Positions 7,070 to 32,635 of a stretch of 35,199 nucleotides of DNA are shown in pieces. The notes beneath the pieces were generated by a model. It was not told the DNA's origin, made no database searches, and saw nothing but the letters and a program-made list of their open reading frames with translations. Source of the stretch: a bacterium (GTDB lineage: Bacteria > UBP15 > UBA6099 > JAJRTR01); contig JAJRTR010000067.1 in assembly GCA_024278215.1 (NCBI GenBank), forward strand, positions 1 through 35,199, in the 5' to 3' direction. The position numbers were made by a program, and so were the translations under genes. Position 1 is the stretch's first letter; each line of letters begins with the position of its first letter.

Positions 7070-8587
7070 GTGTTCTACAGAAGAGACTTCCATTTATTCA
7101 TTTACACATTGATATTTGTTATCGGGCTGTCCGTGCCGTCTCAATGCGCCGTGATCACTGGTGTGGTGAGATATGGGTTGCCTGCGTCCGGAAAAGACAA
7201 TGTAAAGGGGATCAACGCGCTTGCTGTCGTAAAGGGCACCGACATCGGTGTTTACGACATACAAGGCAATCTTCTGGATGAAACACAGACAGGAAAAGAC
7301 GGCAGCTACACTCTCGACATTCCGGACGCCTACAGTTTCGAAGACAACCTGGTTGTGACTCTGAAGTCGGATGCGTACAGGTTAAGGGCGCTCGTGACAG
7401 GAGAAATAGTTGATGTGAATCCGGTTACGGAATCACTAGCGAGACTTATCCTAGATGTGCATGTTCTGAAAAACGATTTCTCCATTAAGGAAGTAAAAAC
7501 GATCGAAAAAGTGTTGTACGAGGCGGCCTCAAAGAAAACATTTTCAAGTGCGGATTCGGTGGCGGACCCCGTGGATATTCTACTGAACGATGAAGCATAC
7601 AGGCTGGCCCTGGGCGATCTTACGATGACATATTCAACAGAAGGCGACACTGTAGAAGACGTTGAGAATTTAAAAACTTTCATGCGCGACCTCATTGGAA
7701 CTTTTAAGGATAACAAACCGGCGGAAGTGCGGAATTATATATCAGACGATGTGAAGGTTTATATCGCCGGGCGGGTTTACACCTACGAAACTCTGCCGGC
7801 GTTCATTAAAAAACTGAATGAAGATTTCGAGATCACAGGTTTCAACATCAAGTGCGACAGGGTGGAGATCAGCAGCGACACGGCGTGGATTGAAACTACC
7901 GAAGGTATTACAATGCTCGACCGCGACGGCGATTACGATATGGATGAAACGTGGATAATGGGTAACAGGTTGAAGAGAATCAACGGAGAATGGAAGCTTG
8001 CCGAGAGAAAGCGAAAAGACTGTACCGTCGAAAATGCGCCGTACATGGAAAACGACACAACACCCGGCTGGGTGGGCATTCGACCATGTATCCTGCAAAG
8101 GCCCAAGCCGGGGATAACGGATGGCTCGCAGTGGGACCCGATCAAGTCGATCTACTTCGCAAAAAGTGGCCGGTATCTTTTCTGGAGAATGGAAATATCC
8201 GGAGATAATAAAGATGCACATGAATTGTTTTCAGACAAAAACGATGGACAAGAACTGTCGAGTGGCATATATGTTATAAGCTTCTCCGGAGACCTGAACG
8301 ATGAGCAGGGCAACAGAATAGACAGCTTCGTCAATCTTAATGATGTGCCTGTCGCAATGTATAAAATAATGCTGAAGGACCCGGACGGCTACATAGACGA
8401 CCTGTTATACACGAGTTATGTGGTCAATGTTGGAGACAGTTACGTGGAAGGCGCGGTGCCGCTCGATGAACTGTCGAAAATCGGTAAAACAATACAGGCC
8501 AAAGGTTTCGTGATAGCGAAGGAACAGTTGCAGGACAGTAATATGCAATCCAATATGAATTCTGTTGTTTTGCACATGGGGGAATAG
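7070..8587 (+). CDS. Secreted protein: N-terminal beta-sandwich plus NTF2-like (SnoaL/DUF4440-like) domain
   Basis: Signal peptide, TQTGKDGSYTL motif, NTF2-like VEISSDTAW...LKRINGEWKL; paralog of 10789..12267. Confidence 0.65.
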   Translation: MFYRRDFHLFIYTLIFVIGLSVPSQCAVITGVVRYGLPASGKDNVKGINALAVVKGTDIGVYDIQGNLLDETQTGKDGSYTLDIPDAYSFEDNLVVTLKSDAYRLRALVTGEIVDVNPVTESLARLILDVHVLKNDFSIKEVKTIEKVLYEAASKKTFSSADSVADPVDILLNDEAYRLALGDLTMTYSTEGDTVEDVENLKTFMRDLIGTFKDNKPAEVRNYISDDVKVYIAGRVYTYETLPAFIKKLNEDFEITGFNIKCDRVEISSDTAWIETTEGITMLDRDGDYDMDETWIMGNRLKRINGEWKLAERKRKDCTVENAPYMENDTTPGWVGIRPCILQRPKPGITDGSQWDPIKSIYFAKSGRYLFWRMEISGDNKDAHELFSDKNDGQELSSGIYVISFSGDLNDEQGNRIDSFVNLNDVPVAMYKIMLKDPDGYIDDLLYTSYVVNVGDSYVEGAVPLDELSKIGKTIQAKGFVIAKEQLQDSNMQSNMNSVVLHMGE

Positions 8588-10788: not shown

Positions 10789-12267
10789 GTGAAAAAGCTG
10801 ATACTGATAATCCTGTGCGTTATCGGGATGGGAACAGCGGCATACAGCAAGGAGATAGCAGGAGTAGTCAGGTGGGGCGCGCCCGAGCCGGGAGAAACTG
10901 AGGGGATCGGCTCGCTCAGCGCCGTTGCCGGTATAGATGTGTCTGTGACCACGACCGATGGAACCGCCCTTGCGACAGCGGTAACCGATGAAAACGGAGA
11001 ATATGTTTTGCAATTCGATTCGGGAGAATCCGCAGCATATACGGATTTTATTCTTGAAGCGGCGACGACCGGCGCCAGGCTTCGCGCAGTTGCCGACGGC
11101 CCGCATGTCGATATCGATCCTGTTTCGGAAGTGATTGTGGAACAGGTTATCAAATCCGGTAGCCCGACAAATAGTTTTACCGCCGATGAAATACGGTTGA
11201 TAAATAAAGAGCTTGCCACCCTCGCGGCGAACGTTGATTTTCAGGGCGTAGAAACACCTTCCGCCGCGGTAGCGTTGTTGCTGAACGACAAGAATTTTAG
11301 CCTCTCTCTTGGTGATCTCATCAACACATACAGTACTGAAGGAGATACAGTCGTCGAAGTTAATGATCTGAAGTCTATGATCACAAAATTCATCGCCGCA
11401 TTCACCAATAACGATCCTTCCGGTGTTGCTGATTACATAACCAACGATGTGCAGATCATTGTTGGCGACAAAGTATATGACTATAACGGTATTCAGAAGT
11501 TTATCGAAGAAATAAACCGAAAATTCGAGATGAATAAATTTGATGTTGAATGTGCTCGTGTCAGGGTGGACGGTGACAGCGCCGAAGTGGAGACTTCGGA
11601 GAAACTTTTATTGACGTCACGCGCCGGCGGCGAAGTTACAAGCGATTCATGGAATATGATAAATACGGTCAGGAGGATTGGCGGCAAGTGGCGTCTTGTA
11701 GACAGAAAAAGGAAGAAATGTGTTGTAGCAAAGCGGAGTATTACGCCGGACGGCGATATATCCGACTGGGTGGGTATCAGACCGTGTCTGATACAAAAGC
11801 CTGTTGTGAAAGGTGGTTCCGGAGTCTGGGGACGTATTGAATCGCTGTATTTCGCAAGAGATGAAATGTATCTGTACTGGAGAATGGACCTTCCGCGGAC
11901 GGCTGCCGCGTCAAACGGCGAAAAGACGTCACGTGGATTGTATTCGTTAACCCTGAAGAACGACACCGGTGATGAAGGTTGCGACCATTTTATAAACATG
12001 ATAGTTTACGAGGGCGTTCAGGGCGCTTCTCTGGGAGAGTCCTGCATCCGAGGGGCGGATAATACCAAAAAGGAAGCCACGTATACATACGAGAAATACG
12101 GTGTCGGAAAACTCACGGTGGAAGGGCGCGTTCCTCTGGATGACATCGGGTATCTGCCCAACGGAGTTATAGCTTTTGGAGCTTACAAGGGAAAAACACA
12201 TACCGGAGAGAAAGAAAAGCCAACGGTGTACACAGACGATACACAGATATTCTTTACCCCCGAATAG
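10789..12267 (+). CDS. Secreted NTF2-like domain protein, paralog of 7070..8587
   Basis: Signal peptide MKKLILIILC..AYS; shared LGDLxxTYSTEGDTV, WVGIRPC, SxYFA...YLxWRM and VEGxVPLD; GAAGGTG RBS-like site. Confidence 0.7.
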   Translation: MKKLILIILCVIGMGTAAYSKEIAGVVRWGAPEPGETEGIGSLSAVAGIDVSVTTTDGTALATAVTDENGEYVLQFDSGESAAYTDFILEAATTGARLRAVADGPHVDIDPVSEVIVEQVIKSGSPTNSFTADEIRLINKELATLAANVDFQGVETPSAAVALLLNDKNFSLSLGDLINTYSTEGDTVVEVNDLKSMITKFIAAFTNNDPSGVADYITNDVQIIVGDKVYDYNGIQKFIEEINRKFEMNKFDVECARVRVDGDSAEVETSEKLLLTSRAGGEVTSDSWNMINTVRRIGGKWRLVDRKRKKCVVAKRSITPDGDISDWVGIRPCLIQKPVVKGGSGVWGRIESLYFARDEMYLYWRMDLPRTAAASNGEKTSRGLYSLTLKNDTGDEGCDHFINMIVYEGVQGASLGESCIRGADNTKKEATYTYEKYGVGKLTVEGRVPLDDIGYLPNGVIAFGAYKGKTHTGEKEKPTVYTDDTQIFFTPE

Positions 12268-12273: not shown

Positions 12274-13629
12274 ATGACAGTTCCGGAAGAAAAAGAATCG
12301 CGAATATACCTTGTCAATCCCCCATCAAAACGGCTTGTTCTGCGTGATTACTATTGCTGTACATTCTCGAAAACAGGCTATCTCTGGCAACCGGTTGATC
12401 TGCTTGTGCAGAGTGGTATTCTTTCCGAACAATACAGTGTCGGGATTATTGACGCGGTAGCGGAAAAGACCGGTGTGGCAACGGTGATAAGGACAATCCG
12501 CGACGCGAAACCTGAAGCGGTATATTCGCTCATCGGATCGAAAACGATTGAAACCGACCTGCAATTTCTGAAAACACTTAAGAGCAATACCGGCGCAACA
12601 ATTATTGTGTCCGGCGATGTCGTGCTCCATAAACCAGCAGTGTTTATTGAAAAACATGACTGTATTGATGCTGTGCTTCTTGATTTTACAACCAGAGATA
12701 TTGTCTACTATTTGCATTCCGTGTTCGACGAGATATCAGGTATGGTTTTTCGGACGGAAGATGGAATAATTTCAAAGATAAAATCATCTCGGCATGAATT
12801 CAAATATCCGTTTCCCTTGCATTCAGCTTTTCCTTCAGAAAAGTATAGTTTCCCGTTTGCGCAGCACGGTTATTCTGCGGTGCTCGCTTCGTTCGGCTGT
12901 CCCTTTTCCTGCGCGTTCTGCAATAGTGGTGTAAAGTCAATCGGGTTCAGTTTCCGAGACTTCGATAATCTGACCGATGAAATATCAGGATTGTACGAAA
13001 AAGGAGTCAGGCATATATTTTTCAAGGATATGACTTTCGGAACGAGTCGTTCCCGCCGCGAGAAGTTGTGCAGTTTTCTCAGCGCGGAAACACGGGGCCT
13101 GACATGGAACACTTATGCGAGAGTCGACCTGCTCGATGAAGAGACAATTAAGATGTATTCGGAGGCGGGCTGCCGGCTACTGCAAATGGGGATAGAGACA
13201 GCGGATGCGGACATGGCCGCGGGAGTCGGAAAGAAATTCGATATGGATCACGTCAGAAAAACATTCGCGTCGCTGAAAAGGAATAACATAGCGATCGGAG
13301 CGCACTATATCGTGGGGCTGCCGGGCGAAGTCGTGGCTGGGGCGATGAAAACACTAAGGCTGGCGCGGCGTCTCGATTCCGATTACGCATCATTTAATCT
13401 ATACTCGCCAAGACCGGGATCATCGCTCTATGATGTGGAGAAGACCCGGAAACGAAAACGGTTTGTATGGAAACAGGTATTCAGATTGATTTACATTATG
13501 TTTTATTTGCGGCCCGGATATATATTCGCTTCTCTGCGAAAAGGAAAGGCCGGGGGGGACGAAAGGAACATAAATATCCGCTCGATGATGAATATAATAA
13601 GTTATATTTTGTATCTGCCTGATGAATGA
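12274..13629 (+). CDS. B12-binding domain radical SAM protein
   Basis: N-terminal LVNPP...IIDAVAE Rossmann-like domain; SFGCPFSCAFC; GIET; IVGLPGE. Confidence 0.85.
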   Translation: MTVPEEKESRIYLVNPPSKRLVLRDYYCCTFSKTGYLWQPVDLLVQSGILSEQYSVGIIDAVAEKTGVATVIRTIRDAKPEAVYSLIGSKTIETDLQFLKTLKSNTGATIIVSGDVVLHKPAVFIEKHDCIDAVLLDFTTRDIVYYLHSVFDEISGMVFRTEDGIISKIKSSRHEFKYPFPLHSAFPSEKYSFPFAQHGYSAVLASFGCPFSCAFCNSGVKSIGFSFRDFDNLTDEISGLYEKGVRHIFFKDMTFGTSRSRREKLCSFLSAETRGLTWNTYARVDLLDEETIKMYSEAGCRLLQMGIETADADMAAGVGKKFDMDHVRKTFASLKRNNIAIGAHYIVGLPGEVVAGAMKTLRLARRLDSDYASFNLYSPRPGSSLYDVEKTRKRKRFVWKQVFRLIYIMFYLRPGYIFASLRKGKAGGDERNINIRSMMNIISYILYLPDE

Positions 13630-13691: not shown

Positions 13692-14945
13692 TCAGATATT
13701 CGCAAGTATATCATTGGTAAACCTGATTTGTGGTTCCACAGATTTGAAACCTTCAAGTACCTTGGCGGCCTCAGTATATAGAGACCTGACTGCTGATCCC
13801 GTATAGCGGTCGAGATTGCCCGCGCTGGGATAGGGAAGAGACAGGACGATTCCTTCGAAGTCTCTGTTTCCGCTGTATTTGTCGACAATTGACTGGATTG
13901 TGTCGCCGAGCGTGCCGATGCTTTCCGGGGTGAGTTTGATATTGACTCTTGATTTGTTTTCATCTTCGAGCAGGTTTTCGAGTCCCTGCAATGTTTGCGA
14001 CAGGCTGTTATCAGTACGTGTATGTGCATCGTGTATTTTCGGGTCCGAGGAAAAAAGTGACACTTCAAATATCAGACTGTCACTTTTGAGTTCGTTATGC
14101 CTTTTTCTGAATGAGGGATTACAGAATATCCGACCATTGGTGTTCACCTGCACGCGAATATCGGGTCTTATCGCCATCACCATTTTCATGACCTTGAGAT
14201 AGCTCTTGTGAAGAGTAGGTTCGCCGCCCTTGATGACCAGTGTTTTCAGTGCTTTTTGTCTTACCTTGCAATATATATATTTTGATAAAGGCATGAAATT
14301 GTGTTTTGAAACTCTTTCATCGAAGTCATAACCTTTCAGATCTGCCGGGATGTGGCATCCGACGCAGTTGTTGTTGCAGTTGCCGTTGATGAATAGATAT
14401 TCGGTAACGAACTTGACTTCCTTGTTGTAGTTTTCTCTTATTTCGGGCTTTTGTGCTTCCTGCCGCACTATTGCCGACAATATGTTGAGAGACCTGAAGT
14501 CAAGTGTGTGGAAGTTGTATTTGAAATAGTTCCTGATGTAATGATAGAGGTGAAAACGCATGTTGAGAAAAGTATCGTAACCGTCGGGGATGTAGGCCAT
14601 AAAAAAGGAAAGGTCTATCCAGTTGTCAATATTCGACGGGCTGTTATCGAGGAGTTCCCAGATCAATTTTATGCCTTTGTCAAACTCCTTTTCCACATAA
14701 TGACAATAGGCTTTGATCGCGACGTAAATGTCGGACCTGAAGTCGGACTTGTAAGACTCGATGAAATCTTTCAAGCGGCGATACTCTTCCGGTTCTCTAT
14801 ACGAGAGCAGTGATATGTGTGTGAAAAAGCTCATATCGTTAACGATATTGAACGAATAGTCGTTCAGATTGCGGTGGTAGGGCATGTCGAAGTTTTTGTT
14901 CAGAACTTCGTTCAGGATGTCGTCATAAGAGTTAATCATCGGCAA
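13692..14945 (-). CDS. Radical SAM protein (HxsC-like core) with N-terminal TPR-like helical domain
   Basis: NGNCNNNCVGC, KGGEPTLH, NTNGRIF, IHDAHT; N-terminal EFDKGIKLIWELLDNSPSNIDNWIDL; overlaps the stop of the upstream gene. Confidence 0.8.
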   Translation of the reverse strand: MPMINSYDDILNEVLNKNFDMPYHRNLNDYSFNIVNDMSFFTHISLLSYREPEEYRRLKDFIESYKSDFRSDIYVAIKAYCHYVEKEFDKGIKLIWELLDNSPSNIDNWIDLSFFMAYIPDGYDTFLNMRFHLYHYIRNYFKYNFHTLDFRSLNILSAIVRQEAQKPEIRENYNKEVKFVTEYLFINGNCNNNCVGCHIPADLKGYDFDERVSKHNFMPLSKYIYCKVRQKALKTLVIKGGEPTLHKSYLKVMKMVMAIRPDIRVQVNTNGRIFCNPSFRKRHNELKSDSLIFEVSLFSSDPKIHDAHTRTDNSLSQTLQGLENLLEDENKSRVNIKLTPESIGTLGDTIQSIVDKYSGNRDFEGIVLSLPYPSAGNLDRYTGSAVRSLYTEAAKVLEGFKSVEPQIRFTNDILANI

Positions 14946-15975: not shown

Positions 15976-16884
15976 CTATTTTTTTGTCACGGGTTCAAAT
16001 TCGCTCCATCCGTAAGTCCTCGGATATTGCAGCCATGGCCCCTCGCAGATGTTGTAGTATAAACATTTCTTGCATTTTGGGGCTTTTTCCTTTTCAAAAT
16101 TTTTTCTGATGTATTCGAAATCGTTAACGACATTGGTAACGTCGTTAAGCTTGACGTGCGGGATATAGTTTTCCGACACATGCTTTTCATATCCCTGCAT
16201 GAAGCAGAACGGTACGGCTTCCACAAAGACCTGCACACCTGCTTTTCTTCCTATGTCGATGCCCTTTTTTATATAAGGTACGCAAAGCGATTTTTTCGGG
16301 AGCACGGAAAGTATGTTTTTGTCTGCGCTGCCGAGCACATGCACGAAAGCGTACTGAAACACATCGACTCCAAGCCGCACGAGAAGAGTGGCGAGGTCGG
16401 GGAATGTCCTGAAATTTGTTTTTGTAACGACAGTGTTTATCGAAACCGACTGTTTTCTCTTTGTGAGGTTGTATATTCCTTTTACTGTCTGTCTGTAGCT
16501 GTTGGCGCCGGTCAGGTAATTGTGGCAATATTCGTTAGCGGAGAGCAGTGCCGCGGTAACGGTTTGTATGCGGCCTTTACCAGCGGCGAGGAATTCGTCG
16601 CAGAACTTGCTGTAAGCGAATCGCCGGGCATTGGTCTGGATAAGTATGTTGTATCCGAGTCCGGCAGCATATTCGAGAATTTCCATGCAGTCGTTTCTGA
16701 CAGTGAATTCACCACCGGTCAGCACGACTTCCTGGTAGTCGTCTTTTTCCGCATAGAGGACATCCTTTATCTGCTGCGTTGTGCGGTCGGGAATAAAAAA
16801 TCTTTTGTCGCCGATAACACAATGTTTGCAGTAGTTGTTGCATCTATAACCAACTTTCAGGTCAAGTCTGTTCGGCATTGCCAT
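15976..16884 (-). CDS. Radical SAM protein with C-terminal auxiliary-cluster motif (HxsC-like)
   Basis: VGYRCNNYCKHC, LTGGEFT, IQTNAR, VPFCF, CKKCLYYNICEG; GGAG RBS. Confidence 0.88.
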   Translation of the reverse strand: MAMPNRLDLKVGYRCNNYCKHCVIGDKRFFIPDRTTQQIKDVLYAEKDDYQEVVLTGGEFTVRNDCMEILEYAAGLGYNILIQTNARRFAYSKFCDEFLAAGKGRIQTVTAALLSANEYCHNYLTGANSYRQTVKGIYNLTKRKQSVSINTVVTKTNFRTFPDLATLLVRLGVDVFQYAFVHVLGSADKNILSVLPKKSLCVPYIKKGIDIGRKAGVQVFVEAVPFCFMQGYEKHVSENYIPHVKLNDVTNVVNDFEYIRKNFEKEKAPKCKKCLYYNICEGPWLQYPRTYGWSEFEPVTKK

Positions 16885-16927: not shown

Positions 16928-17893
16928 TTACGATGCGCCTGCTAAGATTTTTTCTGAAACTTCTTCTTTCGTTGTGTAAAACACAGGATACAATTCTCTG
17001 GATGTGTAGTGTTCGTCCATGGAATACAAACCTGCACATATTTCGTTCAGGTAGCACACTTTGCAGCAATCGGTTTTCCCGTAAAACCTGTCACCGTCTC
17101 TTTTGTCTACTTCACCTTTTTCGTCCAGGAAAAGTATCCTGCATTTGTCGTTTTTAACGATCCTTCTGGTCTCGGTCGATAAGTGCTCGAAACCGCTCAT
17201 GTAACACAGGGGAACGCGTTCGACGCGGCAGGACATTCCCCATTCTTCGATCAAATTTACCGATCTGTCGAGTTGTATGTCGAAATCATTCAGCATGGGG
17301 ATTGTATCGGTGTTCTGCGAGGCGCGGTTCATCAGCGGGTCGAGGTTATTGAAGGTTATATGTTTTACAAAAGAGAATTTCTTTTTTATGTGGCCGACGA
17401 TACGGCTCAGGTGGTCGGAATTGTACTTGTTGATCGTTATCGCTATATCGAGCTTGATGCCGCCGATTTTTTTTATATTGCGCGCGGCCTGCTCGAAATT
17501 CTTGAGCGAATCCTGATTGCCGGTGAGAAAGCTCTGGACACCGGCATCGTCGGAGTAGACGGACATTGTTACAAGTTTCAGGCCGGAATCCTTAAGTTTT
17601 TTCAGATAGGCCATGTCTGCCAGTTTCTGGCCGTTTGTGATAATGCGACAGCCGAATTTCCTTGAAGCGCAATATTCGATATATTCCGGCAGATCATCGG
17701 ACAGGGTCGGTTCGCCGCCTGTGAGCAGAACGCCGAGGTAATCGCCGTCGGCAATTGTCGAGTCGATAAACTTTTTGCCCTGGGACAATGTTATGGAATT
17801 CTGATTCTCCGGATTTGAACAGAATCTGCATTGCTGGTTACATAAACGTGTGATCTGAAGATATGAAAAACTTGCCATAATATTATTTTTCAA
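16928..17893 (-). CDS. Radical SAM protein with C-terminal auxiliary-cluster motif (HxsC-like)
   Basis: ITRLCNQQCRFC, LTGGEPTL, ITNG, VPLCY, CKVCYLNEICAG. Alternative ATG at 17878. Confidence 0.88.
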   Translation of the reverse strand: MKNNIMASFSYLQITRLCNQQCRFCSNPENQNSITLSQGKKFIDSTIADGDYLGVLLTGGEPTLSDDLPEYIEYCASRKFGCRIITNGQKLADMAYLKKLKDSGLKLVTMSVYSDDAGVQSFLTGNQDSLKNFEQAARNIKKIGGIKLDIAITINKYNSDHLSRIVGHIKKKFSFVKHITFNNLDPLMNRASQNTDTIPMLNDFDIQLDRSVNLIEEWGMSCRVERVPLCYMSGFEHLSTETRRIVKNDKCRILFLDEKGEVDKRDGDRFYGKTDCCKVCYLNEICAGLYSMDEHYTSRELYPVFYTTKEEVSEKILAGAS

Positions 17894-18014: not shown

Positions 18015-18839
18015 TTACCACGATGAATGCGAGCCGTGCGAACCGTGGCTGTTCGCGCTGCTGTGCGAGTTGGCGGCAGCAATGCTGGCGTGAGTATTCG
18101 CAGAGCCGGTGTTGGCGTGTGTGCTAAGGTTCGTGTGCCTGTTTATTGCGTTAGTGCTGGCGTGTGTCGCATAGTTCCTGTGATTATTTATAGCATTGGC
18201 ATTGCCGTGAGTATTGACATTGGTGCTGGCATGGGTGGCGCTTACATTGTTGTGAACACTTGTGCCCGCCGTGTTGACGTGATTGCCGGTAGTCGCGCTT
18301 CCGTGTGCTGTCCATGCGGAGTGTTTGCCTTGCGAGGCGCTGTTGTGCATATTGCCTTTTGTGACCCCGCCGCTCGAGTGTACGGCGGCCGCATTGATCG
18401 CCGGTTTGCTGGAGTGCTTATTTATAGCAGATGTGGCGATATTTTTATTGTAGCTGTTATGGGCGTTTACGGCTGCGGTGCTTGTGTGCGCGCCTGAGCT
18501 TGAGTGCACACTGTTTGCGACCTGGCTGGCGTGCGTGTTTGCGTTGGAATGCTGGGCAATAGCGGCGACACTCGTGTGCCCCGACTGGGCGGCCCTGTTT
18601 GTGTGGGCATTATAACTGACGTGCATACTTTCGTGTGCCGACCTTGCGACCTGCGGGTCGATAAGAATTCCCAGCGCGACGAAAACCATGGCACCGGTCA
18701 CAACATTTTTCGATGTGATCTTCGCCTCTTCTTTTGTGAAATAGCACAGTGCATCTTCAACTATTCCCGGCAGTTTCCTTTTTGGGGACTGTAATCCCGC
18801 CGTGCCGGTCTGCGCTGTTCCTTTCATTCTCTTTTTCAT
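18015..18839 (-). CDS. His-Xaa-Ser/Asn repeat precursor protein 3 (HxsA-like)
   Basis: 27 His, 26 of them H-x-S/N; ends SHGSHGSHSSW; conserved leader. ATG 18839 has an AAGGTGG SD (ORF track starts at GTG 18848). Confidence 0.88.
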   Translation of the reverse strand: MKKRMKGTAQTGTAGLQSPKRKLPGIVEDALCYFTKEEAKITSKNVVTGAMVFVALGILIDPQVARSAHESMHVSYNAHTNRAAQSGHTSVAAIAQHSNANTHASQVANSVHSSSGAHTSTAAVNAHNSYNKNIATSAINKHSSKPAINAAAVHSSGGVTKGNMHNSASQGKHSAWTAHGSATTGNHVNTAGTSVHNNVSATHASTNVNTHGNANAINNHRNYATHASTNAINRHTNLSTHANTGSANTHASIAAANSHSSANSHGSHGSHSSW

Positions 18840-18865
18840 CTCGCCCACCTTTTAATAAATTTACC

Positions 18866-18998
18866 TGCCGGGACTGTCCTGACCCGGCAAAGCCGGAATC
18901 CAACAGGCCGCATTTTCGTGCCCAAACAAATGCGGTTTGAGCACGGCACACAGAGTTTCATCGTTTCCAAGGTCTACCTCGGAAACGCCTGTAACTGG
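18866..18998 (-). promoter_or_regulatory. Structured intergenic leader, candidate cis-regulatory RNA
   Basis: Hairpins at 18962-18987, 18917-18945 and 18866-18889, two of them with competing alternative pairings. Confidence 0.35.
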
Positions 18999-19094
18999 CA
19001 GCTCCAGCTTTCACCGATCTCTTTTCAGCATTTCTTTACCATCCTGCGTAGAATTTCAGTCGTAAGATACTATACGTCAATTATTATCAATATG

Positions 19095-19928
19095 TTACCA
19101 TGAAGCGTGAGAAGCATGTGAGAAATGCTTGTTAGAACTTACATGATTGTTGATCGCTGTGATATTCGAGTGTGTGTTAACGGCGGCTCTGTTCCCATGT
19201 GAATTGGAGTTGGCATGGGAGTTTATGGCGCCGGTATTGGAATGTCTGTTCACACTGGCATGGTCTGCGGCGGCGACGGTGCTCGCATGGGCGGAAGATG
19301 AAGCGTGATCGGATACGGCGGGGATACTGGTATGTGTGTTTGTACCCGCGGCATTCACATGTGATGTGAGGCTCGAATTGTCGTGAGCAGTCCACGCGGT
19401 GTGTTTGCCCTGCGAGGCGCTGTTGTGCATGTTGCCTTTTGTCAGGCTGTTGTTCGAGTGAACAGCCGCGGCGCTTGTGTGTCCCGAACTGGAGTGTACG
19501 GACCTTACCGGATAGCTTGTAGCGTTGTTGAGGCTTGAATGGTTGTTCAGGGCGGCGGAACTGGTGTGGTCGCTGGCACTGACGTGAGAGTTGATCGCGT
19601 TCGAACTGCGGTGGCTGGTGTCACTAAGATGTTTGTTCACGGCTATCACGCTCGAATGAGTGCTTCTTGCTGCCTGGCTTCCGTGGCTGACGATGTTGGA
19701 ATGGATGTTTGTATGCCAGCCTGCGGCCGGGTCGCTCGCCAGTCCGATGTCCACCACCGCAAGCGTTCCTGTAAGGATGCTCTTCGAGCTGATTTTGGCT
19801 TCTTCATTCTTGAAGTAACCAAGCACATCTTCTTTGATGGAGGGAAGCAATTTACCAGCGCCGGGCTTGAGTTTGCTGTCAGGCGAAATGTTGCCATCCC
19901 TGCCTGTCTTTTTCCTTTTATCCGCCAT
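19095..19928 (-). CDS. His-Xaa-Ser/Asn repeat precursor protein 2 (HxsA-like)
   Basis: 28 His, 27 of them H-x-S/N; ends HFSHASHASW; GGAGG RBS. Confidence 0.9.
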   Translation of the reverse strand: MADKRKKTGRDGNISPDSKLKPGAGKLLPSIKEDVLGYFKNEEAKISSKSILTGTLAVVDIGLASDPAAGWHTNIHSNIVSHGSQAARSTHSSVIAVNKHLSDTSHRSSNAINSHVSASDHTSSAALNNHSSLNNATSYPVRSVHSSSGHTSAAAVHSNNSLTKGNMHNSASQGKHTAWTAHDNSSLTSHVNAAGTNTHTSIPAVSDHASSSAHASTVAAADHASVNRHSNTGAINSHANSNSHGNRAAVNTHSNITAINNHVSSNKHFSHASHASW

Positions 19929-20071
19929 TTCTATCGCCTCCGGACATCAACTTGTGTTTTGCGTTCTTTAATGGAGCCAATTGGCTCAATGATCCGTTCA
20001 ATTCAGGTTACACATCTTGCTTTGTTGCTTTTAAATCTTTGTTGTTTTAAAATCACTGTATTCCCTTATCA

Positions 20072-20893
20072 TTACCATGAAGCGTGCGAGCTGTGTGAAG
20101 AATGCGCATTGGAATTCGAATGAGCGTTCACAGCAGTGATGCTCGAGTGGGCACTGACACCGGTTCCGCTTGTATGACTGTTAAGGCTGTAGTGGTTATT
20201 GATCGCATTCCTGCTGGCATGTCTGCTCGAATTCGAGTGTGCCGCCGCGGCTGAAGCGTTCGAGTGTGTGCTGTAGTTTGTGTGTGCATTTGTAGGCGAC
20301 ATGCTTGTGTGCCTGCTGGATGCGGCCCTGCTGGCATGTGTTGTGGGGGCTGTGTTGCTGTGGTCCGTCCAGGCGGAGTGCGTGCCCTGTGAGGCGCTGT
20401 TGTGCATGTTGCCTTTTGTGAGTGCGCTGTTGGAGTGTGTGTCGACAACGGTGTTTGTGGCTGCCGTACTTGCATGGCTGTTGGAGTTCATGTTCGAATG
20501 ATTGTTGATGCTGTTATGTACATTCACACTGCCTTTGCTGGAATGATCGCTGACAACATTGCTGTGTCTGGACGATGCTGCCATGCTGCCGTGCGAACTT
20601 ATGTTTGTGTGCCTGTTGACGGCGGAAACATTGGAGTGCGAACTGGACCCCGCCTGGTTGATATGCTGAACAACACTGGAATGAGCGCTGGTGTGAATAG
20701 ACGACGCGGGGTCGGAGAGCAGACCGATGGCGGCAATCGCCAGTGTGCCGGTGAGAATGTTTTTGGGCGATATCTTTGCTTCTTCATTGGTGAAATATTC
20801 GAGCACGTCATCCTTCACCGAGGGCAGTATCGTTTTGACACCCTGTTTGACTGAAGCGCTACCGTATACTTCGTTGCGTTTTTTTTCGCTCAT
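20072..20893 (-). CDS. His-Xaa-Ser/Asn repeat precursor protein 1 (HxsA-like)
   Basis: 28 His, 27 of them H-x-S/N; ends HSSHSSHASW; AAGGTG RBS; directly downstream of hxsB. Confidence 0.9.
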   Translation of the reverse strand: MSEKKRNEVYGSASVKQGVKTILPSVKDDVLEYFTNEEAKISPKNILTGTLAIAAIGLLSDPASSIHTSAHSSVVQHINQAGSSSHSNVSAVNRHTNISSHGSMAASSRHSNVVSDHSSKGSVNVHNSINNHSNMNSNSHASTAATNTVVDTHSNSALTKGNMHNSASQGTHSAWTDHSNTAPTTHASRAASSRHTSMSPTNAHTNYSTHSNASAAAAHSNSSRHASRNAINNHYSLNSHTSGTGVSAHSSITAVNAHSNSNAHSSHSSHASW

Positions 20894-20990: not shown

Positions 20991-22535
20991 TTAATTGCTT
21001 TTCTCGCATTCGCATTCTTTTTCTTCCGGAACATTGTCTCGTTCACTCCCGTTATCCGGGATCACTGCATTGTCGTCCTGCACTCTTTTGCCGACATAGT
21101 CTTCGATCCACTTAAGGAATACGGCACTGTTTTCCGGGATGAGGAGTCGCTCGAACAGGATATCCATAATACCTTCGTTTATTTTGTGCCTTCTTGTAGT
21201 GAAAACATTTGGGGACAACTCACCGCTCTCGTGATAATTCTGCACGGGACATATACCGCAATAAGGTTTATAGACGCACATCGAGCAACCGGGTGTCGAT
21301 TCTATAGTCGAAGCAAGGCATACGGCTTTAGTCGCCTTGTGCATGATCAGGTCGGTGTATGTGGACTCGCCGCAAGTGCCTATCTTGAATGTATCGTCGC
21401 CAAGGTGCCCGAGCATTCGGGCTTCGTCACATGTATACACGTCTCCGTTGTAGTTGTATGCAAGCTGTCCGAGTGCCGCGCCGCACGGAGACTTTAAATC
21501 CACATAACCAGGTTCGTGGCCTGCGATAGCCTTGCTGAGTATGTATATCGCAAATGTCTCCGTGAAGTATGTGCCGCCGTGGTTGATCTCCAGCACATAA
21601 TCAATTATCTCTGCATAAAATTCGAGAAATTCATCTGTGGTTATTCCTATTTTCTCCCAGTTTTTCTGAGCTACGCCCAGCGTGGTGGGGGGCCGCACGA
21701 ATATGGAATTCGACCCAAGCGAACGATATTCGTCTACAATCTCCCTTGCATAAGGCAGTGAATGTTTTGTAACGGTTCCTATCAGCGCCGGGAGTCTCTC
21801 GAGTCCTTCGTTCACATAGCGGTCAAACACTTTTCTGTAGTTTTTAACTACAAGCGCATGATTATCGCCGCGGTTTTTGTTGTGTACGTAGTCCGGTCCG
21901 TCGAGCGACATGCACATCACAACTTCGTTCTCGACAAGGAAATCAAGTTTCTCGTCATCTATCAGGGTGTGGTTTGATACTATGTTGAAACTTATCGACC
22001 TGTTTTTTACTTTATTAACTTCTTTCGCGTATTTGATTATGTGTTTGACAACTTCCCAGTTGAGCAGCGGTTCGCCGCCCTGGAACTCTATGCTGAGAAC
22101 TTCCGAAGGCGCCTGGAAGATCGTGTCCACCACCTTCTCGGCGGTTTCTATCGACATGTCTGTGCCGTGTGTGCTGCCCGGCACAGAATTCGCCTGGCAG
22201 TAAAGACATTTCAGATTGCATCTCAGCGTGGCGATTATGATATGCAGATTGGTAATGTGGGCGGGGTCCCTGAATCGTTTCAGCGCCTTATCCACCACAC
22301 CCGCTCTTGTTTCCTTCGTGAAGATCATATTGTGTTTCTGGAAATCTTCCATCAGCCGGCGATTACCGTAGGGGAGCCCGTTTTCGACAAGGTCTTTGAA
22401 ATCCGGCTCTTCGAGAAATAAGTAATTGCCGTATTCATTAACTATCAGAACATAGCCGCCTATTTTCCTGAAGCTGAAAGGCACCATTTTCTCAAAGTGC
22501 TTTTGTTTAACTTTTTTAATTGCGATGCCGTTCAT
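20991..22535 (-). CDS. hxsB: His-Xaa-Ser system radical SAM/SPASM maturase HxsB
   Basis: LHIIIATLRCNLKCLYCQA, IEFQGGEPLLN, SLDGP, YVDLKSPCGAALGQLAYNYNGDVYTCDEARML, PGCSMCVYKPYCGICPV. Confidence 0.9.
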   Translation of the reverse strand: MNGIAIKKVKQKHFEKMVPFSFRKIGGYVLIVNEYGNYLFLEEPDFKDLVENGLPYGNRRLMEDFQKHNMIFTKETRAGVVDKALKRFRDPAHITNLHIIIATLRCNLKCLYCQANSVPGSTHGTDMSIETAEKVVDTIFQAPSEVLSIEFQGGEPLLNWEVVKHIIKYAKEVNKVKNRSISFNIVSNHTLIDDEKLDFLVENEVVMCMSLDGPDYVHNKNRGDNHALVVKNYRKVFDRYVNEGLERLPALIGTVTKHSLPYAREIVDEYRSLGSNSIFVRPPTTLGVAQKNWEKIGITTDEFLEFYAEIIDYVLEINHGGTYFTETFAIYILSKAIAGHEPGYVDLKSPCGAALGQLAYNYNGDVYTCDEARMLGHLGDDTFKIGTCGESTYTDLIMHKATKAVCLASTIESTPGCSMCVYKPYCGICPVQNYHESGELSPNVFTTRRHKINEGIMDILFERLLIPENSAVFLKWIEDYVGKRVQDDNAVIPDNGSERDNVPEEKECECEKSN

Positions 22536-23300: not shown

Positions 23301-23589
23301 TTTTTGCCGGCCCTCCCAGGATTCCTCAACACTTTATCAAAGCCTGTTGAAGCGATCATTCTGAAAAATAAATATTTCCATCTCCGAGCGATGTGATTAT
23401 ATATATAAATGGTTATATAACTCTTCGATCTATTATAGTACAGAACATGAAAATTCACAATCTTTCACTGAAGCTTATCGGTTATTCATGCTTTCCATGT
23501 GAAAACAAGCCGCATATTTATTCGAAATCACATTATTGTTATAGTATATCATGTATTGCAGAATATCAGATAGCGGGAAAAGTTCTGAA
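23301..23589. promoter_or_regulatory. AT-rich divergent promoter region between the hxs operon and a B12-rSAM
   Basis: Non-coding, AT-rich, with short palindromes TTATATATATAA and GTTATATAAC; exact promoters not resolved. Confidence 0.45.
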
Positions 23590-24888
23590 ATGAAGAAAAC
23601 TCATATCGTCTGCCTGCTTGGGCTGTCGAAACTTGACATTTATCATAAGGATACCTATTGCTACGGACTCGATAGAATCGCGGCGCATTCGCTCAAAAAA
23701 GGCCTGAATGCAAGAATACACAAATTAAACAGATATGTGGCAGGAGACATAACAGATGATTTGAAGCAGGTGGTTGAAATATATCCCGACGTACTGGCCT
23801 TATCGGCGTATTTGTGGAATGTGGAAAGAGTCGATTACCTTATATCCAGGACCAGGGAACTGCTCACGGAAACGCTGGTGGTGGTCGGCGGTCCGAGCGC
23901 GGGAAGGTACAGGCAGTTTGCTCCGGAATCGAAAAGCCCCCACTACGTAATTATCGGCGAGGGCGAAAAAGTATTCTTCGATCTTGTTGATTCATACCTG
24001 AACGGCAGGAAAAGATGTTATATCGCGCCGATATTAGAAAAAGAGGAGCTTGTATCATGCCGGGAACCTGTGATTATTGAAGATGCGCCGCCTGTCGCGA
24101 ATCTGGACGAACTGGGGTCGCCGTATACGATGAACCTTGGAATGCCGCCCGGTGACCGCCTGTATATCGAGACAAGCAGGGGATGTCCCCACAGGTGCTC
24201 TTTCTGCATTATGGGAATGTGCCGGGCGCCCCTTAGATTTTTCAGTATGGATTTTCTCAGGGAAGAATTACTCTGGGCAAAAAGCAACGGGAAAACCGAT
24301 GTCGATATTTGCGATGCGGCAATCAATTATAATTCGGAACATGCGGCGGGCTTTTTCAGAACGGCGGAAAGTATTGATCCTGAAGGTCAACTGAGTTTCA
24401 CTTTCGCAGTTCATGCGGATTATATAACGCCGGATCAGATCAGTGAGATGTCGCGTGTGAATGTTTTGCAGGCATCGGTAGGACTGAATTCATTAACACC
24501 CGGGACATTCAAGACAGTTGGGCGCAGAGTGGACAGAGTAAAGTTTGCAAGAAAAATCGATATGCTGAATACGGTCACAAGGCCCTCTGTTTCAGTTATA
24601 ATGGGGCTTCCGGGCGATACTGTGGAAGGATTTCGTGAGACGCTGGAATTCTGTGCGGAGTTGGATGCCGATATAAATATTTTTGAGCTCAAGGTTTTTC
24701 ACGATACCGGCTACTACAGGGATATCGAGAGATATAAGATTGTGTTTGATGAGGGCAACAGCATGAATGTTGTGTCGACGTTCAGCTACACGGAATCCGA
24801 TCTTGAAGAGATGCGGGCGGCGGCGGCGGAGTACGCCAGGAGGTTCGACAGGTTCAGTGCAGGCGATGTCGAACAAGTATGGAAATGA
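23590..24888 (+). CDS. B12-binding domain radical SAM protein
   Basis: PDVLALSAYLWN, VVVGGP, IIGEGE, ETSRGCPHRCSFC, IMGLPGDT. ATG 23590 preferred to 23551. Confidence 0.88.
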   Translation: MKKTHIVCLLGLSKLDIYHKDTYCYGLDRIAAHSLKKGLNARIHKLNRYVAGDITDDLKQVVEIYPDVLALSAYLWNVERVDYLISRTRELLTETLVVVGGPSAGRYRQFAPESKSPHYVIIGEGEKVFFDLVDSYLNGRKRCYIAPILEKEELVSCREPVIIEDAPPVANLDELGSPYTMNLGMPPGDRLYIETSRGCPHRCSFCIMGMCRAPLRFFSMDFLREELLWAKSNGKTDVDICDAAINYNSEHAAGFFRTAESIDPEGQLSFTFAVHADYITPDQISEMSRVNVLQASVGLNSLTPGTFKTVGRRVDRVKFARKIDMLNTVTRPSVSVIMGLPGDTVEGFRETLEFCAELDADINIFELKVFHDTGYYRDIERYKIVFDEGNSMNVVSTFSYTESDLEEMRAAAAEYARRFDRFSAGDVEQVWK

Positions 24889-26096: not shown

Positions 26097-27584
26097 TCAT
26101 GCGTCGAGCCCGAAGAATTTTTTGAGGTAGTGTTTGTAGCGCGCGGCGTACTGGAGCATCATGATCTCGGCGTCGGGCGACTTGCGCATCAGGAGCCGCG
26201 CGGCGGTGTATGCTATGCCGGGGATGACGGATGTCGGGAAACGTCGATACCAGCGCCGCCGGATGATTTTGTCTATCCAGCGCTTCGGCAGTATCATGAT
26301 AAGCACGAACAGCAGGTAGAACTGTCGCTGGAGCAGCGGCGACGCGCTGTCGATGGTGATCGAGCCGAGGTCGTCGCCCGAGTTGATACGGGCTACATCC
26401 TCAGCGGTCAGCACGCCGTGGTCCATTGCGATTTGAATTATTTCGGTGCTCGGAAAGTATCGCAGCCAGAACACTTTCAATATGTCGGGCCGGACTTCGT
26501 TGTAGAACTCGGCCATCTCGAGCAGGTCGTCCTCGTTTTCTGTCGGAAAGTTGGTAATGTTTTCGGCGGCGACGAATATATTCCTGCTTTTGAGAATCTC
26601 AATCGAGCGCCTTATCCTGTCGGTCGTTTCACGGCGGTTGTAAATGTTGCGGCGTTTTTCCTGGTTGATCGTCTGCACGCCGATGTCCACCTTGCCACAG
26701 CCCGACTCCGCCAGAAGGTCGGCGTATTCCTCGGTGACTATGTTGGGATTCGTGCAGGCGATATAGGGCAGTCCGACCCGCCGGTTGTATTTTTCGACGA
26801 ATTCTTCCAGCCATTTTTTGTTGAATCCGAATACTTCGTCATAGAAATTGATGTGCGGCTCGCCGTACTTCTTTTTAGCAGCCGCGAGTTCTTCGATGAC
26901 GTTGTCCACGCTTCGCAGCCGGACATAGCCTTTGAGCCCGTAGATTCTTTTCAAGAGGTTATTATTGCAGAAAGTGCATTTGTAGGGACAGCCGCGCGAT
27001 GCCATGATGGTGTAGATGTCGGTGGGTTTCATGGGCGTCTTTTCGTAAAGCGTTTTGTCGGGGAAGGGGAGTGTGTCCAGGTCCGCGATCAGCGGTCTGA
27101 TGGGGTTTAATCGAGCGTTGCCGTTTTCGAGCGTGCCGAGATTTTCTATCGCCGGGTCTATTCCGCCGGTGCTCATGACCGAGTCGATGATGTCCGCGAA
27201 AGCGCCTTCGCCCTCGCCGCGCACGACTGCGTCCACACAGTCGAGTTCGAGAATGTTTTCGGGTACGGAAGTGATGTGAATGTTGCCCGCAATTATCGGG
27301 GCGTCCGTGTGCGGGCGGATCATGGCGGCTAACTCGCGGAACCACGGCACATCGCTTGTCACTACCGAGAAAGCGAGCAGGTCGGGTTTTTCGGCGAGGA
27401 CTTCCCTGACGACTTTTTTTCTCATGTTGAAGAGCCGCGCGAGCGGGCCGACGGTCACAAACGAATCGTCGAACAATCTCGGGTCGAACACCATCGATAC
27501 TTCGCAGCCCTTTGCTTTCGCCACAGCCGAAAGGTACTCGATTGCGAGGCTGCTGAACGCCGGGTATACAAATACTATTTTCAT
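26097..27584 (-). CDS. B12-binding domain radical SAM protein
   Basis: MKIVFVYP start, PDLLAFS, VVRGEGE, DLDTLPFPD, ASRGCPYKCTFC, RSVDNVIEE. Confidence 0.9.
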   Translation of the reverse strand: MKIVFVYPAFSSLAIEYLSAVAKAKGCEVSMVFDPRLFDDSFVTVGPLARLFNMRKKVVREVLAEKPDLLAFSVVTSDVPWFRELAAMIRPHTDAPIIAGNIHITSVPENILELDCVDAVVRGEGEGAFADIIDSVMSTGGIDPAIENLGTLENGNARLNPIRPLIADLDTLPFPDKTLYEKTPMKPTDIYTIMASRGCPYKCTFCNNNLLKRIYGLKGYVRLRSVDNVIEELAAAKKKYGEPHINFYDEVFGFNKKWLEEFVEKYNRRVGLPYIACTNPNIVTEEYADLLAESGCGKVDIGVQTINQEKRRNIYNRRETTDRIRRSIEILKSRNIFVAAENITNFPTENEDDLLEMAEFYNEVRPDILKVFWLRYFPSTEIIQIAMDHGVLTAEDVARINSGDDLGSITIDSASPLLQRQFYLLFVLIMILPKRWIDKIIRRRWYRRFPTSVIPGIAYTAARLLMRKSPDAEIMMLQYAARYKHYLKKFFGLDA

Positions 27585-27729
27585 AGGTCTGTTTTTATCC
27601 GAATTCCTGCATTTGTGTTTCGACAAGCCTGTAAAGCGGTTTGCCGTTGCCGCACTGCCAACCACAGTGGTGAAATATGCTGATAATATATCGAATCCAT
27701 ATCATATTACAGGTCGAGTCTTTGTCGTT

Positions 27730-29043
27730 TCAATCCGGTTTCGCCGGCTCGCCTTCCGGCAGCCAGCAGAAAGGCCGGTATTTTGTATTATATATGCAGG
27801 GCGGTATGAAACCGCGCTCGGCCATATAAACTTTATTGCAACGGTTCGCATCTACGAGGTCTATGGTGTCGTGTTGCCGGAAGTCCTCGACCGTCACCAG
27901 CTTGATACTGCCTGTGAGCGTGATCGCGTCCCAGTGTCGCAGAGCGCCCACGAGCAGGGCGAGTTCCGCGAATCCGCGCGGGTTGAGCAGAGCGCCAGAG
28001 GGCGTGAAGTACCTGTTCACCGGGAACGGGCCGCCGGGGCGGTTGTGCAGCAGCATCATGTGGAAACAGCTTTTCTGCTTGAAATCCTGGTGTCCCGTGA
28101 GTTTAAAAAGCCGGTTGCCGATAGCGCGTGTGTGCATGAAATCTTTCATCGTGACGCGCCCGCCCGTGCCCGATTCGATAGCGCGCAGGACATCGGGTGC
28201 GGTCGTGTCGAACTCCTCGCCGAAGTCGTCGCGCCCGACGCACGACAGAACCGTGCAGCCGAGGTGCATGATGTTGTCGCTCGCCATCATCAGGTCTATC
28301 ATCCGGCCAAGTTCACCGTCGTTGAGTCCCCTGACTACCATGCAGGCGAGACAGATTTTTATTCCCGATTCGGTAAGTACGGCGAGTGCTTTCTCCTTTA
28401 TCGCAACCAGGTCGCGGCCCCGTGTTTTTTTATAGATGGTGTCGGAAAAGCCGTCGAACTGCAGCAGCACCCATCCGAGCCCGGCATCATGAAGTGTGTC
28501 GACAAAGGCGCGGTCTGTCAGCTTTATCCCGTTGGACGCCATCTTGACGACAAAACCCATGCCGGTAACAGCGCGGATGAGGTCGGGCAGGTCTTTGCGC
28601 ACAGTCGGTTCGCCGCCGCACAGGAGAATCGTGGGAAGGGGCTCCGGCCAGTTTTCGAGACGCGCGCATATTTCGCCGATCGCGGGATCGCGTTTTTTTC
28701 TCGTGTGCGTGTTCGTGAAGCAGGCTGTGCAATTGAGATTGCAGCGCTCGGTGACATCCACCATAATTGTTTTCACGTGGCCGACGTGGCGGCGGCAGTC
28801 GAGGCAGCGCGTGATGTCGCAATCCGTGAAGTCATGGTCTGTTCGAGTTGTGCCTGCGACGCAGCGGTGGTAAAAACCGGCGTCACGGGCGAGCAGAAGG
28901 TCGAACTCTCCGTGGCGGGTGCATCGCTTGCGGATATAAACACTGCCGCCGCGCTCCACGAGTTCGGCGTCGAGCACCGCGTCGCATTCCGGACACAGGC
29001 TGCGGGTATTGCCGAGATGTTTTTCGCCGTTTATCGAACTCAG
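27730..29043 (-). CDS. Radical SAM protein with Tes/MJ0619-like architecture; probable CTG start
   Basis: TRSLCPEC...KRCTRHG N-terminal metal site, CxxxxCxxCxxH, DVTERCNLNCTACFTN, GGEPT, LQFDG, C-terminal RC...IPPCIYN. Frame is open upstream of the ORF-track start at 28977. Confidence 0.8.
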   Translation of the reverse strand: MSSINGEKHLGNTRSLCPECDAVLDAELVERGGSVYIRKRCTRHGEFDLLLARDAGFYHRCVAGTTRTDHDFTDCDITRCLDCRRHVGHVKTIMVDVTERCNLNCTACFTNTHTRKKRDPAIGEICARLENWPEPLPTILLCGGEPTVRKDLPDLIRAVTGMGFVVKMASNGIKLTDRAFVDTLHDAGLGWVLLQFDGFSDTIYKKTRGRDLVAIKEKALAVLTESGIKICLACMVVRGLNDGELGRMIDLMMASDNIMHLGCTVLSCVGRDDFGEEFDTTAPDVLRAIESGTGGRVTMKDFMHTRAIGNRLFKLTGHQDFKQKSCFHMMLLHNRPGGPFPVNRYFTPSGALLNPRGFAELALLVGALRHWDAITLTGSIKLVTVEDFRQHDTIDLVDANRCNKVYMAERGFIPPCIYNTKYRPFCWLPEGEPAKPD

Positions 29044-32149: not shown

Positions 32150-32635
32150 ATGGACGCGCTTTTTGAGACAAAAACAACATCGGAACACGAAACCGAACAA
32201 CTGGGAGCGGCAATCGGCGAGATAATAGAACGAGGAACGATTGTCTGCCTGAGCGGTGAGTTGGGCGCGGGAAAAACAGTTATGGTTCGCGGCATAGCGC
32301 GGGGGCTCGGTGTCCGGGGCGCTGTGACAAGCCCCACATTCCAGCTTGTGCGCGAACACCAGGGCCGGGAACGGCTCTTCCATTTCGATTTCTACCGGCT
32401 CACGACTGCGGCCGAAGCTATCGACCTGGACATCGGGGAATGCCTTGCGACAGGTGTTGTCGCTGTCGAGTGGAGCGACAGGTTTCCCGAACTCCACTTT
32501 GCCGATTGCCTGAACCTGCACCTCGAGTGGGCTGGTGAAAATGAAAGGGATATTCGCATCACCGGCTTCAGCGGATCAGGCGAAAAACTGCATGAAGGGT
32601 TACTGAGGCTGTTAAAATTGAATGTGAAGGACTGA
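32150..32635 (+). CDS. tsaE: tRNA threonylcarbamoyladenosine biosynthesis ATPase TsaE
   Basis: LSGELGAGKT, VTSPTF, HFDFYRL, VEW. Confidence 0.95.
   Translation: MDALFETKTTSEHETEQLGAAIGEIIERGTIVCLSGELGAGKTVMVRGIARGLGVRGAVTSPTFQLVREHQGRERLFHFDFYRLTTAAEAIDLDIGECLATGVVAVEWSDRFPELHFADCLNLHLEWAGENERDIRITGFSGSGEKLHEGLLRLLKLNVKD

Follow-up and report, generated by a model that had tools for sequence, protein, structure and literature searches.

Why should three paralogous proteins that have drifted to 41-43% overall identity keep their histidine (His) columns aligned, site for site, across cores of about 206 residues? The question is raised by three minus-strand genes, here called precursors A, B and C, on a bacterial contig of GTDB lineage UBP15 (assembly GCA_024278215.1, contig JAJRTR010000067.1), all 35,199 nucleotides of which were analysed and are referred to below as the window. 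We find that the three genes lie in a conserved ten-gene operon that belongs to the known His-Xaa-Ser (Hxs) radical S-adenosylmethionine (SAM) system, a link that the initial annotation of this DNA had not drawn, and that a clade-specific ban on insertions and deletions (indels) fixes 27-31 sites at constant positions. The reading that we favour, and to which we assign a probability of about 0.7, is that the precursors are HxsA-type substrates of a divergent Hxs system, in which every H-x-S/N site would be modified, the whole chain of about 206 residues would be exported, and the register would be required by the product or by its ordered processing. The Hxs family itself is already known; what is unusual here is a set of substrates that are length-locked, triplicated and furnished with 28 sites.

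Register and core length of the precursors

The initial annotation, made from the letters of the sequence, had counted the distances between successive His in each precursor, and recomputation from the translations returned all three series exactly. Its count from the first His to the terminal Trp, 206, 206 and 207 residues in A, B and C, was likewise reproduced, as was the presence of Ser or Asn two residues after 80 of the 83 His (26/27 in A, 27/28 in B and 27/28 in C). The three exceptions share a single alignment column, the Ala of a central H-[ST]-A-W. The cores are dominated by A, S, N, T, G and H, with one hydrophobic residue per unit, and contain 4-9 Lys plus Arg per ~206 residues. A Pfam search placed no domain, including a peptidoglycan-binding domain, in any of the three.

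Relatives were collected with a word-indexed search of 5.8 billion proteins, which returned 5, and with an exhaustive HMMER search of 1.84 billion representatives using an 8-sequence profile, which returned 35 at E<=1e-3 and 9 at E<=1e-10; species-representative genomes were also scanned with the maturase HxsB, giving 53 loci. The comparison rests on 25 sequences (six trios in five genomes of two genera, and seven metagenome proteins) and on a full-length set of 19; P0008-P0011, which are fragments or apparently frame-shifted, were omitted from all alignments. With few changes, one canonical series of spacings, 4,6,9,9,6,9,6,9,6,9,12,11,8,6,8,9,9,6,9,6,9,6,9,9,6,3,3, runs through P0001-P0007 and all trios. 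The core measures 205-207 residues in 24 of the 25 sequences and in 19/19 of the full-length set. Across the latter, 22 of 28 His columns are invariant, and mean pairwise identity is 0.95 in the His columns, 0.59 in the +2 columns, where Ser and Asn interchange, and 0.38 elsewhere; 81 of the 171 pairwise alignments are free of gaps. Best matches and gene order assign precursor C to type X, B to type Y and A to type Z. Between the window and its orthologues, types Y and Z show 0 gaps over 206 residues, and type X shows two single-residue gaps of opposite sign, a +1 and a -1 that compensate each other. Of 25 equal-length orthologue pairs, 11 have a finite dS, and for these the ratio of nonsynonymous to synonymous substitution rates (dN/dS) lies at 0.11-0.21 (0.16-0.21 for precursor B); synonymous sites are saturated in the other 14. 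The reading frame of the precursors is under purifying selection. Open reading frames (ORFs) of 150-194 residues also run antisense to the precursors on the plus strand (18027-18497, 19539-20123 and 20402-20854 of the window); since conservation and dN/dS favour the minus-strand frames, these are most likely artefacts of composition.

A sister clade (P0012, P0013, P0015, P0018, P0020 and P0022) served as a control. Its members share the leader, a related central motif and a tail of S-H-G-S-H-G-Q-W, and carry x-P-H-x-[SN] sites at an irregular 6/7/10 spacing; metagenome scans for their genomic context (queries P0013 and P0012) gave pattern matches among which no relative was confirmed. Cores in this clade range from 147 to 192 residues (6 complete sequences). 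Over 15 pairs, with P0014 left out of the count, mean identity is 0.37 with 10.0 gap openings and 39 gapped residues per pair, as against 0.43, 1.85 and 2.3 over 135 pairs of the 6/9 clade. In a further group, the short precursors described below (n=31), the contiguous HxS runs vary from 3 to 43. Because both the sister clade and the short precursors vary in this way, the constraint is real but clade-specific, and is not general to Hxs substrates. The earlier proposal that length and register are under selection therefore holds within the clade and lapses beyond it: free indels between His motifs, for which homologues were to be checked, are few in the 6/9 clade and frequent in the sister clade and the short arrays. 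That one enzyme family serves both freely varying short arrays and a length-locked array of 206 residues suggests two uses of the product.

The Hxs operon, its relatives and a possible mode of action

The ten genes follow the order HxsD-like, HxsD-related, HxsB, X, Y, Z, HxsC-like, HxsC4-like, DUF483-like and radical SAM (Table 1). Long precursors occur at only 3 of the 53 HxsB loci (L004-L006), those with the closest HxsB, and each has three of them directly after HxsB; the operon is wholly conserved in L004 and L006, and in L005 up to the end of the contig. The window's precursors C, B and A are 41-44%, 44-48% and 49-54% identical to the first, second and third precursors of these loci, and long precursors form trios, in the fixed order X-Y-Z, at 6 of 6 loci. 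HxsB, whose translation shows CX3CX2C and C-terminal Cys motifs, has orthologues in L004-L006 that are 61-63% identical, and the 67-residue HxsD-related protein has orthologues there at 51-54%. The 190-residue HxsD-like protein has orthologues of 51-53% identity in the same position in all three. Its C-terminal half is strongly acidic, with a Glu run and Asp-rich stretches, and it is speculation that it might act as a chaperone-like partner of the His-rich substrates. The two HxsC-like enzymes miss the cut-off of TIGR03977 and are related to HxsC without being equivalogs of it; the 321-residue enzyme has orthologues of 60% identity, and the 302-residue enzyme, at 77%, is the best conserved gene of the operon. 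The DUF483-like protein (orthologues 65-66% identical) and the 417-residue radical SAM protein (39-40%) keep their positions in L004 and L006; 34-41% of the members of the atlas clusters matched by the former carry DUF483.

Table 1. Genes of the Hxs operon in the window; positions are those of the whole stretch.
Feature	Position	Strand	Details
Precursor C, type X, 273 aa	20072..20893	-	leader 20696-20893; core 20075-20695, 207 aa, 28 His; central motif ~20360-20419
Precursor B, type Y, 277 aa	19095..19928	-	leader 19716-19928; core 19098-19715, 206 aa, 28 His; central motif 19383-19442
Precursor A, type Z, 277 aa	18015..18848	-	leader 18636-18848; core 18018-18635, 206 aa, 27 His; central motif 18303-18362
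HxsD-like protein, 190 aa	22728..23300	-	HxsD-type N-terminal domain and acidic C-terminal half; TIGR03976 36.8 bits (cut-off 50), residues 13-96
HxsD-related small protein, 67 aa	22535..22738	-	NF038315 HxsD_rel 66.5 bits, above cut-off (41)
HxsB, radical SAM/SPASM maturase, 514 aa	20991..22535	-	TIGR03978 470.8 bits, above cut-off (370); Pfam Radical_SAM 66.7 bits
HxsC-like radical SAM enzyme, 321 aa	16928..17893	-	TIGR03977 HxsC 88.4 bits (cut-off 267.9); Radical_SAM 63.8 bits
Second HxsC-like radical SAM enzyme, 302 aa	15976..16884	-	NF038332 HxsC4 99.9 bits (cut-off 500); TIGR03977 89.7 bits
DUF483-like protein, 325 aa	14932..15909	-	PF04467 24.2 bits (cut-off 25); atlas feature match 0.93
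Further radical SAM protein, 417 aa	13692..14945	-	Radical_SAM 36.2 bits; last conserved operon gene

The Hxs system was reportedly defined in silico by Haft and Basu in 2011. Among Haft's NCBIfam models for it, those for HxsB and HxsD_rel are exceeded in the window, and those for HxsC, HxsC4, HxsD and HxsA3 are matched below their cut-offs. The HxsA3 model (NF038309, cut-off 65) weakly matches the leader part of the precursors, at 20.9 bits in precursor A and at 17.5 bits. A search with PADLOC-DB 2.0.0, a library of 2023 that predates the 2026 paper discussed below, returned just generic viperin-like radical SAM matches.

At the other 50 HxsB loci, where HxsB is 32-43% identical to that of the window, at least one His-rich ORF passing the filter was found in 45. 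These loci come from bacteria of the candidate phyla radiation (CPR), Omnitrophota, Elusimicrobia and archaea, and any such ORF that follows HxsB is a short precursor, with the shared leader motif, an (S-H-G/A)n array and a final W, Y or C. In the window's own phylum, for which 13 genomes were surveyed, the window's genome has the long type, as do 4 of the 4 genomes from a second genus, with 3, 3, 3, 3 and 6 copies in these five genomes; three further genomes have the short type. The long type is patchy: the window's genus has it, and so does one genus of a second family, and the remaining genome of the window's family carries the short type, which also occurs in two genera of that second family. 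Such a distribution suggests that the operon moved by transfer within the phylum, or was lost repeatedly. Two further X-Y-Z trios have no Hxs enzyme in the flanks examined, L071 (G009:C6, 7788-10340) and L072 (G010:C13, 7926-10522); G009 holds two trios and a single HxsB above cut-off, and G010 is 67% complete. The window's genome also carries, elsewhere, a complete short-type Hxs system (L076, G000:C205, 2503-6848). Alongside an HxsD-related protein it has an HxsB of its own, which scores 499 bits and shares 40% identity with that of the window, two HxsC-like enzymes and a 121-residue ORF with a nine-fold S-H-G array ending in W, so that each substrate type in this genome has an enzyme set of its own.

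The leader of the long precursors, of ~65-70 residues, starts with a basic N-terminus, which leads into the motif L-P-x-I-x-x-D-x-x-x-Y-F-x-x-E-E-A-K-I-S and, after it, a hydrophobic segment of ~15 residues; the motif and the hydrophobic segment are common to these and to the short precursors linked to HxsB. In 19/19 leaders, a net-positive N-region of 36-88 residues that holds the conserved motif precedes 15 residues whose Kyte-Doolittle hydropathy is 1.5-2.7, after which D-P or P-E usually stands just before the first His. An Omp85 gene in the genome (145 bits) identifies the organism as a diderm. Judged from these features and by analogy, export with removal of the leader is the most likely fate of the precursors, the cleavage site and the signal-peptide function being putative.

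A mode of action consistent with these features can be outlined. HxsB, the two HxsC-like enzymes and the HxsD-type partners would bind the leader in the cytoplasm, and each H-x-S/N site would then be modified by radical chemistry that links or alters the His and the +2 residue. Two models for the chemistry can be drawn by analogy: three-residue rings joining the C2 of His to a C-beta, like those formed by triceptide synthases, or a +8 Da change like that at the SHRSS of E. coli HxsA. The leader would direct the chain over the inner membrane and then be removed, and the full-length, multiply modified chain would act in the envelope, with a phage barrier, metal binding and nucleic-acid binding as candidate functions. 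The fixed 6/9 register would be something that the mature product, or its ordered processing, requires. Hxs chemistry in itself does not demand it, since related enzymes, a second set in the window's genome among them, work on contiguous (S-H-G)n arrays whose length varies freely.

The nearest described counterpart is the HXS system of E. coli, an antiphage system comprising HxsA, HxsB, HxsC and HxsD (Li et al., Nat Commun 2026, PMC13128918), with a block of DNA entry as its mode of defence. Its HxsA, as described there, combines a peptidoglycan-binding domain with five HxS repeats of basic character; it undergoes N-terminal processing, bears a +8 Da change located at SHRSS, and is exported as a protein effector that acts in the periplasm. 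According to the same source, 99.6% of HXS systems have the gene order D-B-C-A with a single HxsA, and 99.7% are found in Pseudomonadota; the study mapped the +8 Da change as its single modification and did not succeed in reconstituting the enzymes in vitro. The two systems are alike in having an HxsB-family enzyme, an HxsC-like second radical SAM enzyme, an HxsD-type small protein and a substrate of repeated H-x-S motifs behind a hydrophobic segment. The system studied here differs in its three paralogous substrates, each with 27-28 sites at 6/9 spacing, no recognisable domain and few Lys or Arg (8-9 per core of ~206 residues), in its gene order, D-D'-B-A-A-A-C'-C'' with two extra genes, and in its place in a small phylum (13 genomes) outside the Pseudomonadota. 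With the short (S-H-G/A)n precursors it shares the leader motif, the hydrophobic segment, a terminal aromatic residue or Cys after the final (HxS)n, and the enzyme set. Unlike the long precursors, the short ones have a strict His spacing of 3, a length of 73-257 residues and usually one gene per locus.

Triceptide synthases offer a second comparison. HaaB, YhhB and HtkB form three-residue cyclophanes on aromatic-X-X motifs, and triceptide synthases form rings from His C2 to the C-beta of X3 on H-x-x motifs (PMC11499958). Rings of the latter kind are chemically plausible, by analogy, for H-x-S/N, since the H-x-X3 motif with a small or polar X3, its repetition within one precursor and the SPASM enzyme are alike in the published account; in that account, however, triceptide precursors are short peptides with 1-3 motifs, and the sole Hxs modification measured is the +8 Da of PMC13128918 and not the -2 Da that each ring would give. 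A literature search returned, beyond PMC13128918, no characterisation of an Hxs system and nothing on long, spaced precursor forms.

For work on Hxs chemistry these precursors, with ~28 sites per chain, 83 per operon and dedicated enzymes, would give a much larger signal for mass spectrometry and nuclear magnetic resonance; the short-type system of the same genome, which has its own enzymes, would be similarly useful. Were all sites modified, the product would rank among the most heavily cross-linked ribosomal products described, nearer to a stapled protein than to a peptide.

Repeat units, symmetry and competing explanations

Splitting the cores at each His yields a 9-residue unit, H-x-[NS]-x-[AG]-A-Phi-N-x, and a 6-residue unit, H-x-[NS]-Phi-N-x (Phi, hydrophobic), the former resembling the latter with three residues added. 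The consensus and its orientation are identical in the N-terminal and C-terminal arms, which consist of direct 15-residue repeats (9+6) on either side of an invariant central motif, H-N-S-x-x-Q-G-x-H...A-W; a tail of (HxS)3-W, which is ancestral, closes the core. The spacing series of the N-arm recurs in reverse in the C-arm, as the initial annotation had noticed. Mirror-related His pairs about a core index sum of 200 number 10 in A, 10 in B and 7 in C, the axis, which relates 10-11 pairs, lying halfway from one invariant His of the central motif to the other, and shuffling the order of the spacings of gene B gave 10 such pairs in 0 of 5000 trials (mean 5.8, maximum 9). The significance then attached to this near mirror symmetry is weakened. 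Whatever their phase, two arms that strictly alternate 6 and 9 yield 11 pairs in mirror and 11 in direct relation, the [NS]-x-H-x-[NS] around each His is locally palindromic, and the units are direct copies. Comparing the family profile with itself without the His columns gave a direct peak at offset 108 (0.79, ~3.2 standard deviations) and a mirror peak of equal strength at index sum 200 (0.80, ~3.5 standard deviations). As pure alternation yields the mirror, it is the 15-residue alternation and the fixed length that need explaining.

All arm spacings are multiples of three, as would be expected if the arms arose from an (HxS)n array that lost His residues but underwent no indels. In two of the short precursors examined (P0026 and L007) the array is preceded by a motif resembling the central one, suggesting that the N-arm was added upstream of an ancestral centre, array and tail. 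Tandem Repeats Finder detected no DNA repeat in the cores except 2.2 copies of a 9-nucleotide unit in the tail (18028-18047); the repeats are therefore old, and an origin by recent slippage was rejected on this result. A collagen-like or polyproline-II triplet reading of the multiples of three was also set aside: Gly is absent from every third position, the phase of the arms differs in copies of 205 and 207 residues, and descent from an (HxS)n array makes such a reading unneeded.

Does the register instead reflect a defined fold? The initial annotation had inferred one that presents a His ladder for cross-linking or metal binding, in the form of an antiparallel hairpin, a 15-residue solenoid or an in-register heterotrimer. 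In a hairpin the chain would turn at the central motif, and in all three forms His side chains would face each other. The constant core length, the period of 15 residues, the exactly mirror-related His pairs about the central motif and the invariable grouping of three old paralogues in fixed order would all suit such a structure. AlphaFold2 gave no indication of it, with a predicted local distance difference test score (pLDDT) of 32.7 and a predicted TM-score (pTM) of 0.15 for full-length B with 8 sequences, and a pLDDT of 31.9 and a pTM of 0.14 for the core with 25, where no secondary structure was formed and just the central motif reached 50. Ordinary solenoids are usually well predicted. 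A complex prediction with three cores, each with its own alignment, gave no answer (score 0.00, mark 0.32) and bears on binding in neither direction. The AlphaFold2 models fit an extended enzyme substrate; they lend no support to a fold of the unmodified chain and do not address the modified product. The mirror pairs add almost no information beyond the alternation itself, the repeat units are direct and not mirrored, the composition resembles that of a disordered chain, and the phase from arm to arm varies among copies of 205, 206 and 207 residues. We therefore consider a defined fold unlikely. A little more doubtful is a folded-back or in-register rod of ~100 residues, formed once all 27-28 sites are modified, in which 10-11 pairs of modified imidazoles would face each other at 6/9 steps as a His ladder in the envelope, binding metal or nucleic acid; if it existed, length and register would be selected since a ladder works only when its rungs match. 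The repeated modification motif behind a leader of the kind seen in RiPPs (peptides made by the ribosome and altered after translation) raises another alternative, namely a multicore precursor in which each H-x-S/N unit or 15-mer is modified and the chain is cut into short peptides. HxsB does fall in the SPASM peptide-maturase group, and multi-motif triceptide precursors are described (PMC11499958). Multicore precursors are expected to vary in copy number. Yet the length is fixed here, divergence within each unit runs column by column between orthologues, no cleavage motif recurs beside the units, each core has one conserved centre and one tail, neither a protease nor an export ABC transporter was recognised in the conserved ten-gene set by NCBIfam and Pfam searches, and E. 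coli HxsA is cut only at its N-terminus (PMC13128918). Cutting into short peptides is accordingly improbable, and the earlier preference for a whole-chain product finds indirect support.

Several observations weigh against whole-chain Hxs substrates whose register is selected. The folded enzymes that adjoin the precursors are equally poor in indels, with 0-2 gaps per 62-505 columns in comparison with L004, so that the precursors are as indel-poor as folded proteins and not more so, and the indel rate may simply be low throughout this lineage. Few lineages underlie the 25 sequences, namely two genera (five genomes) and metagenome proteins of uncertain relatedness. Nor is the register absolute: 6 of 28 columns show a His that is missing or displaced by 2-3 residues, and the type Y copy of L072 has a core of 209 residues without the terminal S-W. 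As to the Hxs assignment, no precursor attains any HxsA model in the NCBIfam search, and the HxsC-like and 190-residue HxsD-like proteins fall below their family cut-offs. HxsB scores lower on cyclophane-synthase models (49-59 bits) than on those for the thioether-forming maturases PapB (132) and SCIFF (123), and it fails the cyclophane-synthase families AmcB (58.9 bits), YhhB (55.1) and GrrM/OscB (52.2), whose cut-offs are 310-445. Modification, export and product of the precursors are all proposed by analogy, as are the chemistry and function we suggest for them, and the DNA-binding model for E. coli transfers poorly because the precursors have no peptidoglycan-binding domain and few Lys or Arg. 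The indel-poor enzymes and the few lineages would also suit a neutral history, in which the register was inherited from a recent ancestor in an indel-poor lineage with no selection of its own. This we hold to be highly improbable. Types Y and Z show no indel despite synonymous saturation in 14 of the 25 orthologue pairs; the paralogues predate the species split and yet hold a common register at 43-45% identity; and in type X the compensating indels restore a core of 205-207 residues. Moreover, a sister clade of similar identity has ~10 gap openings per pair, and low-complexity repeats normally gain and lose units fast, as those of the short type do.

Other genes in the window

At least eight radical SAM genes lie within the 35 kb, at 12274-13629, 13692-14945, 15976-16884, 16928-17893, 20991-22535, 23551-24888, 26097-27665 and 27730-28977, and two of them have B12-binding domains. 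The B12 enzyme at 23551-24888 has a counterpart, 38% identical, a few kb upstream of the operon in L006. Scans of the window for promoters and terminators stayed at chance (14 found against 14.1 expected, and 12 against 12.4). Two paralogous proteins of ~500 residues with a SnoaL/DUF4440-like domain are encoded on the plus strand at 7070-8587 and 10789-12267, and a 534-residue relative of this pair (24-28% identical) stands directly upstream of the HxsD-like gene in L004-L006. At 29507-32134, also on the plus strand, an 875-residue protein contains three NlpC/P60 stretches (203 bits), with TsaE (32150-32635) and CbiM (33573-34196) close by; all three appear to be ordinary housekeeping neighbours.

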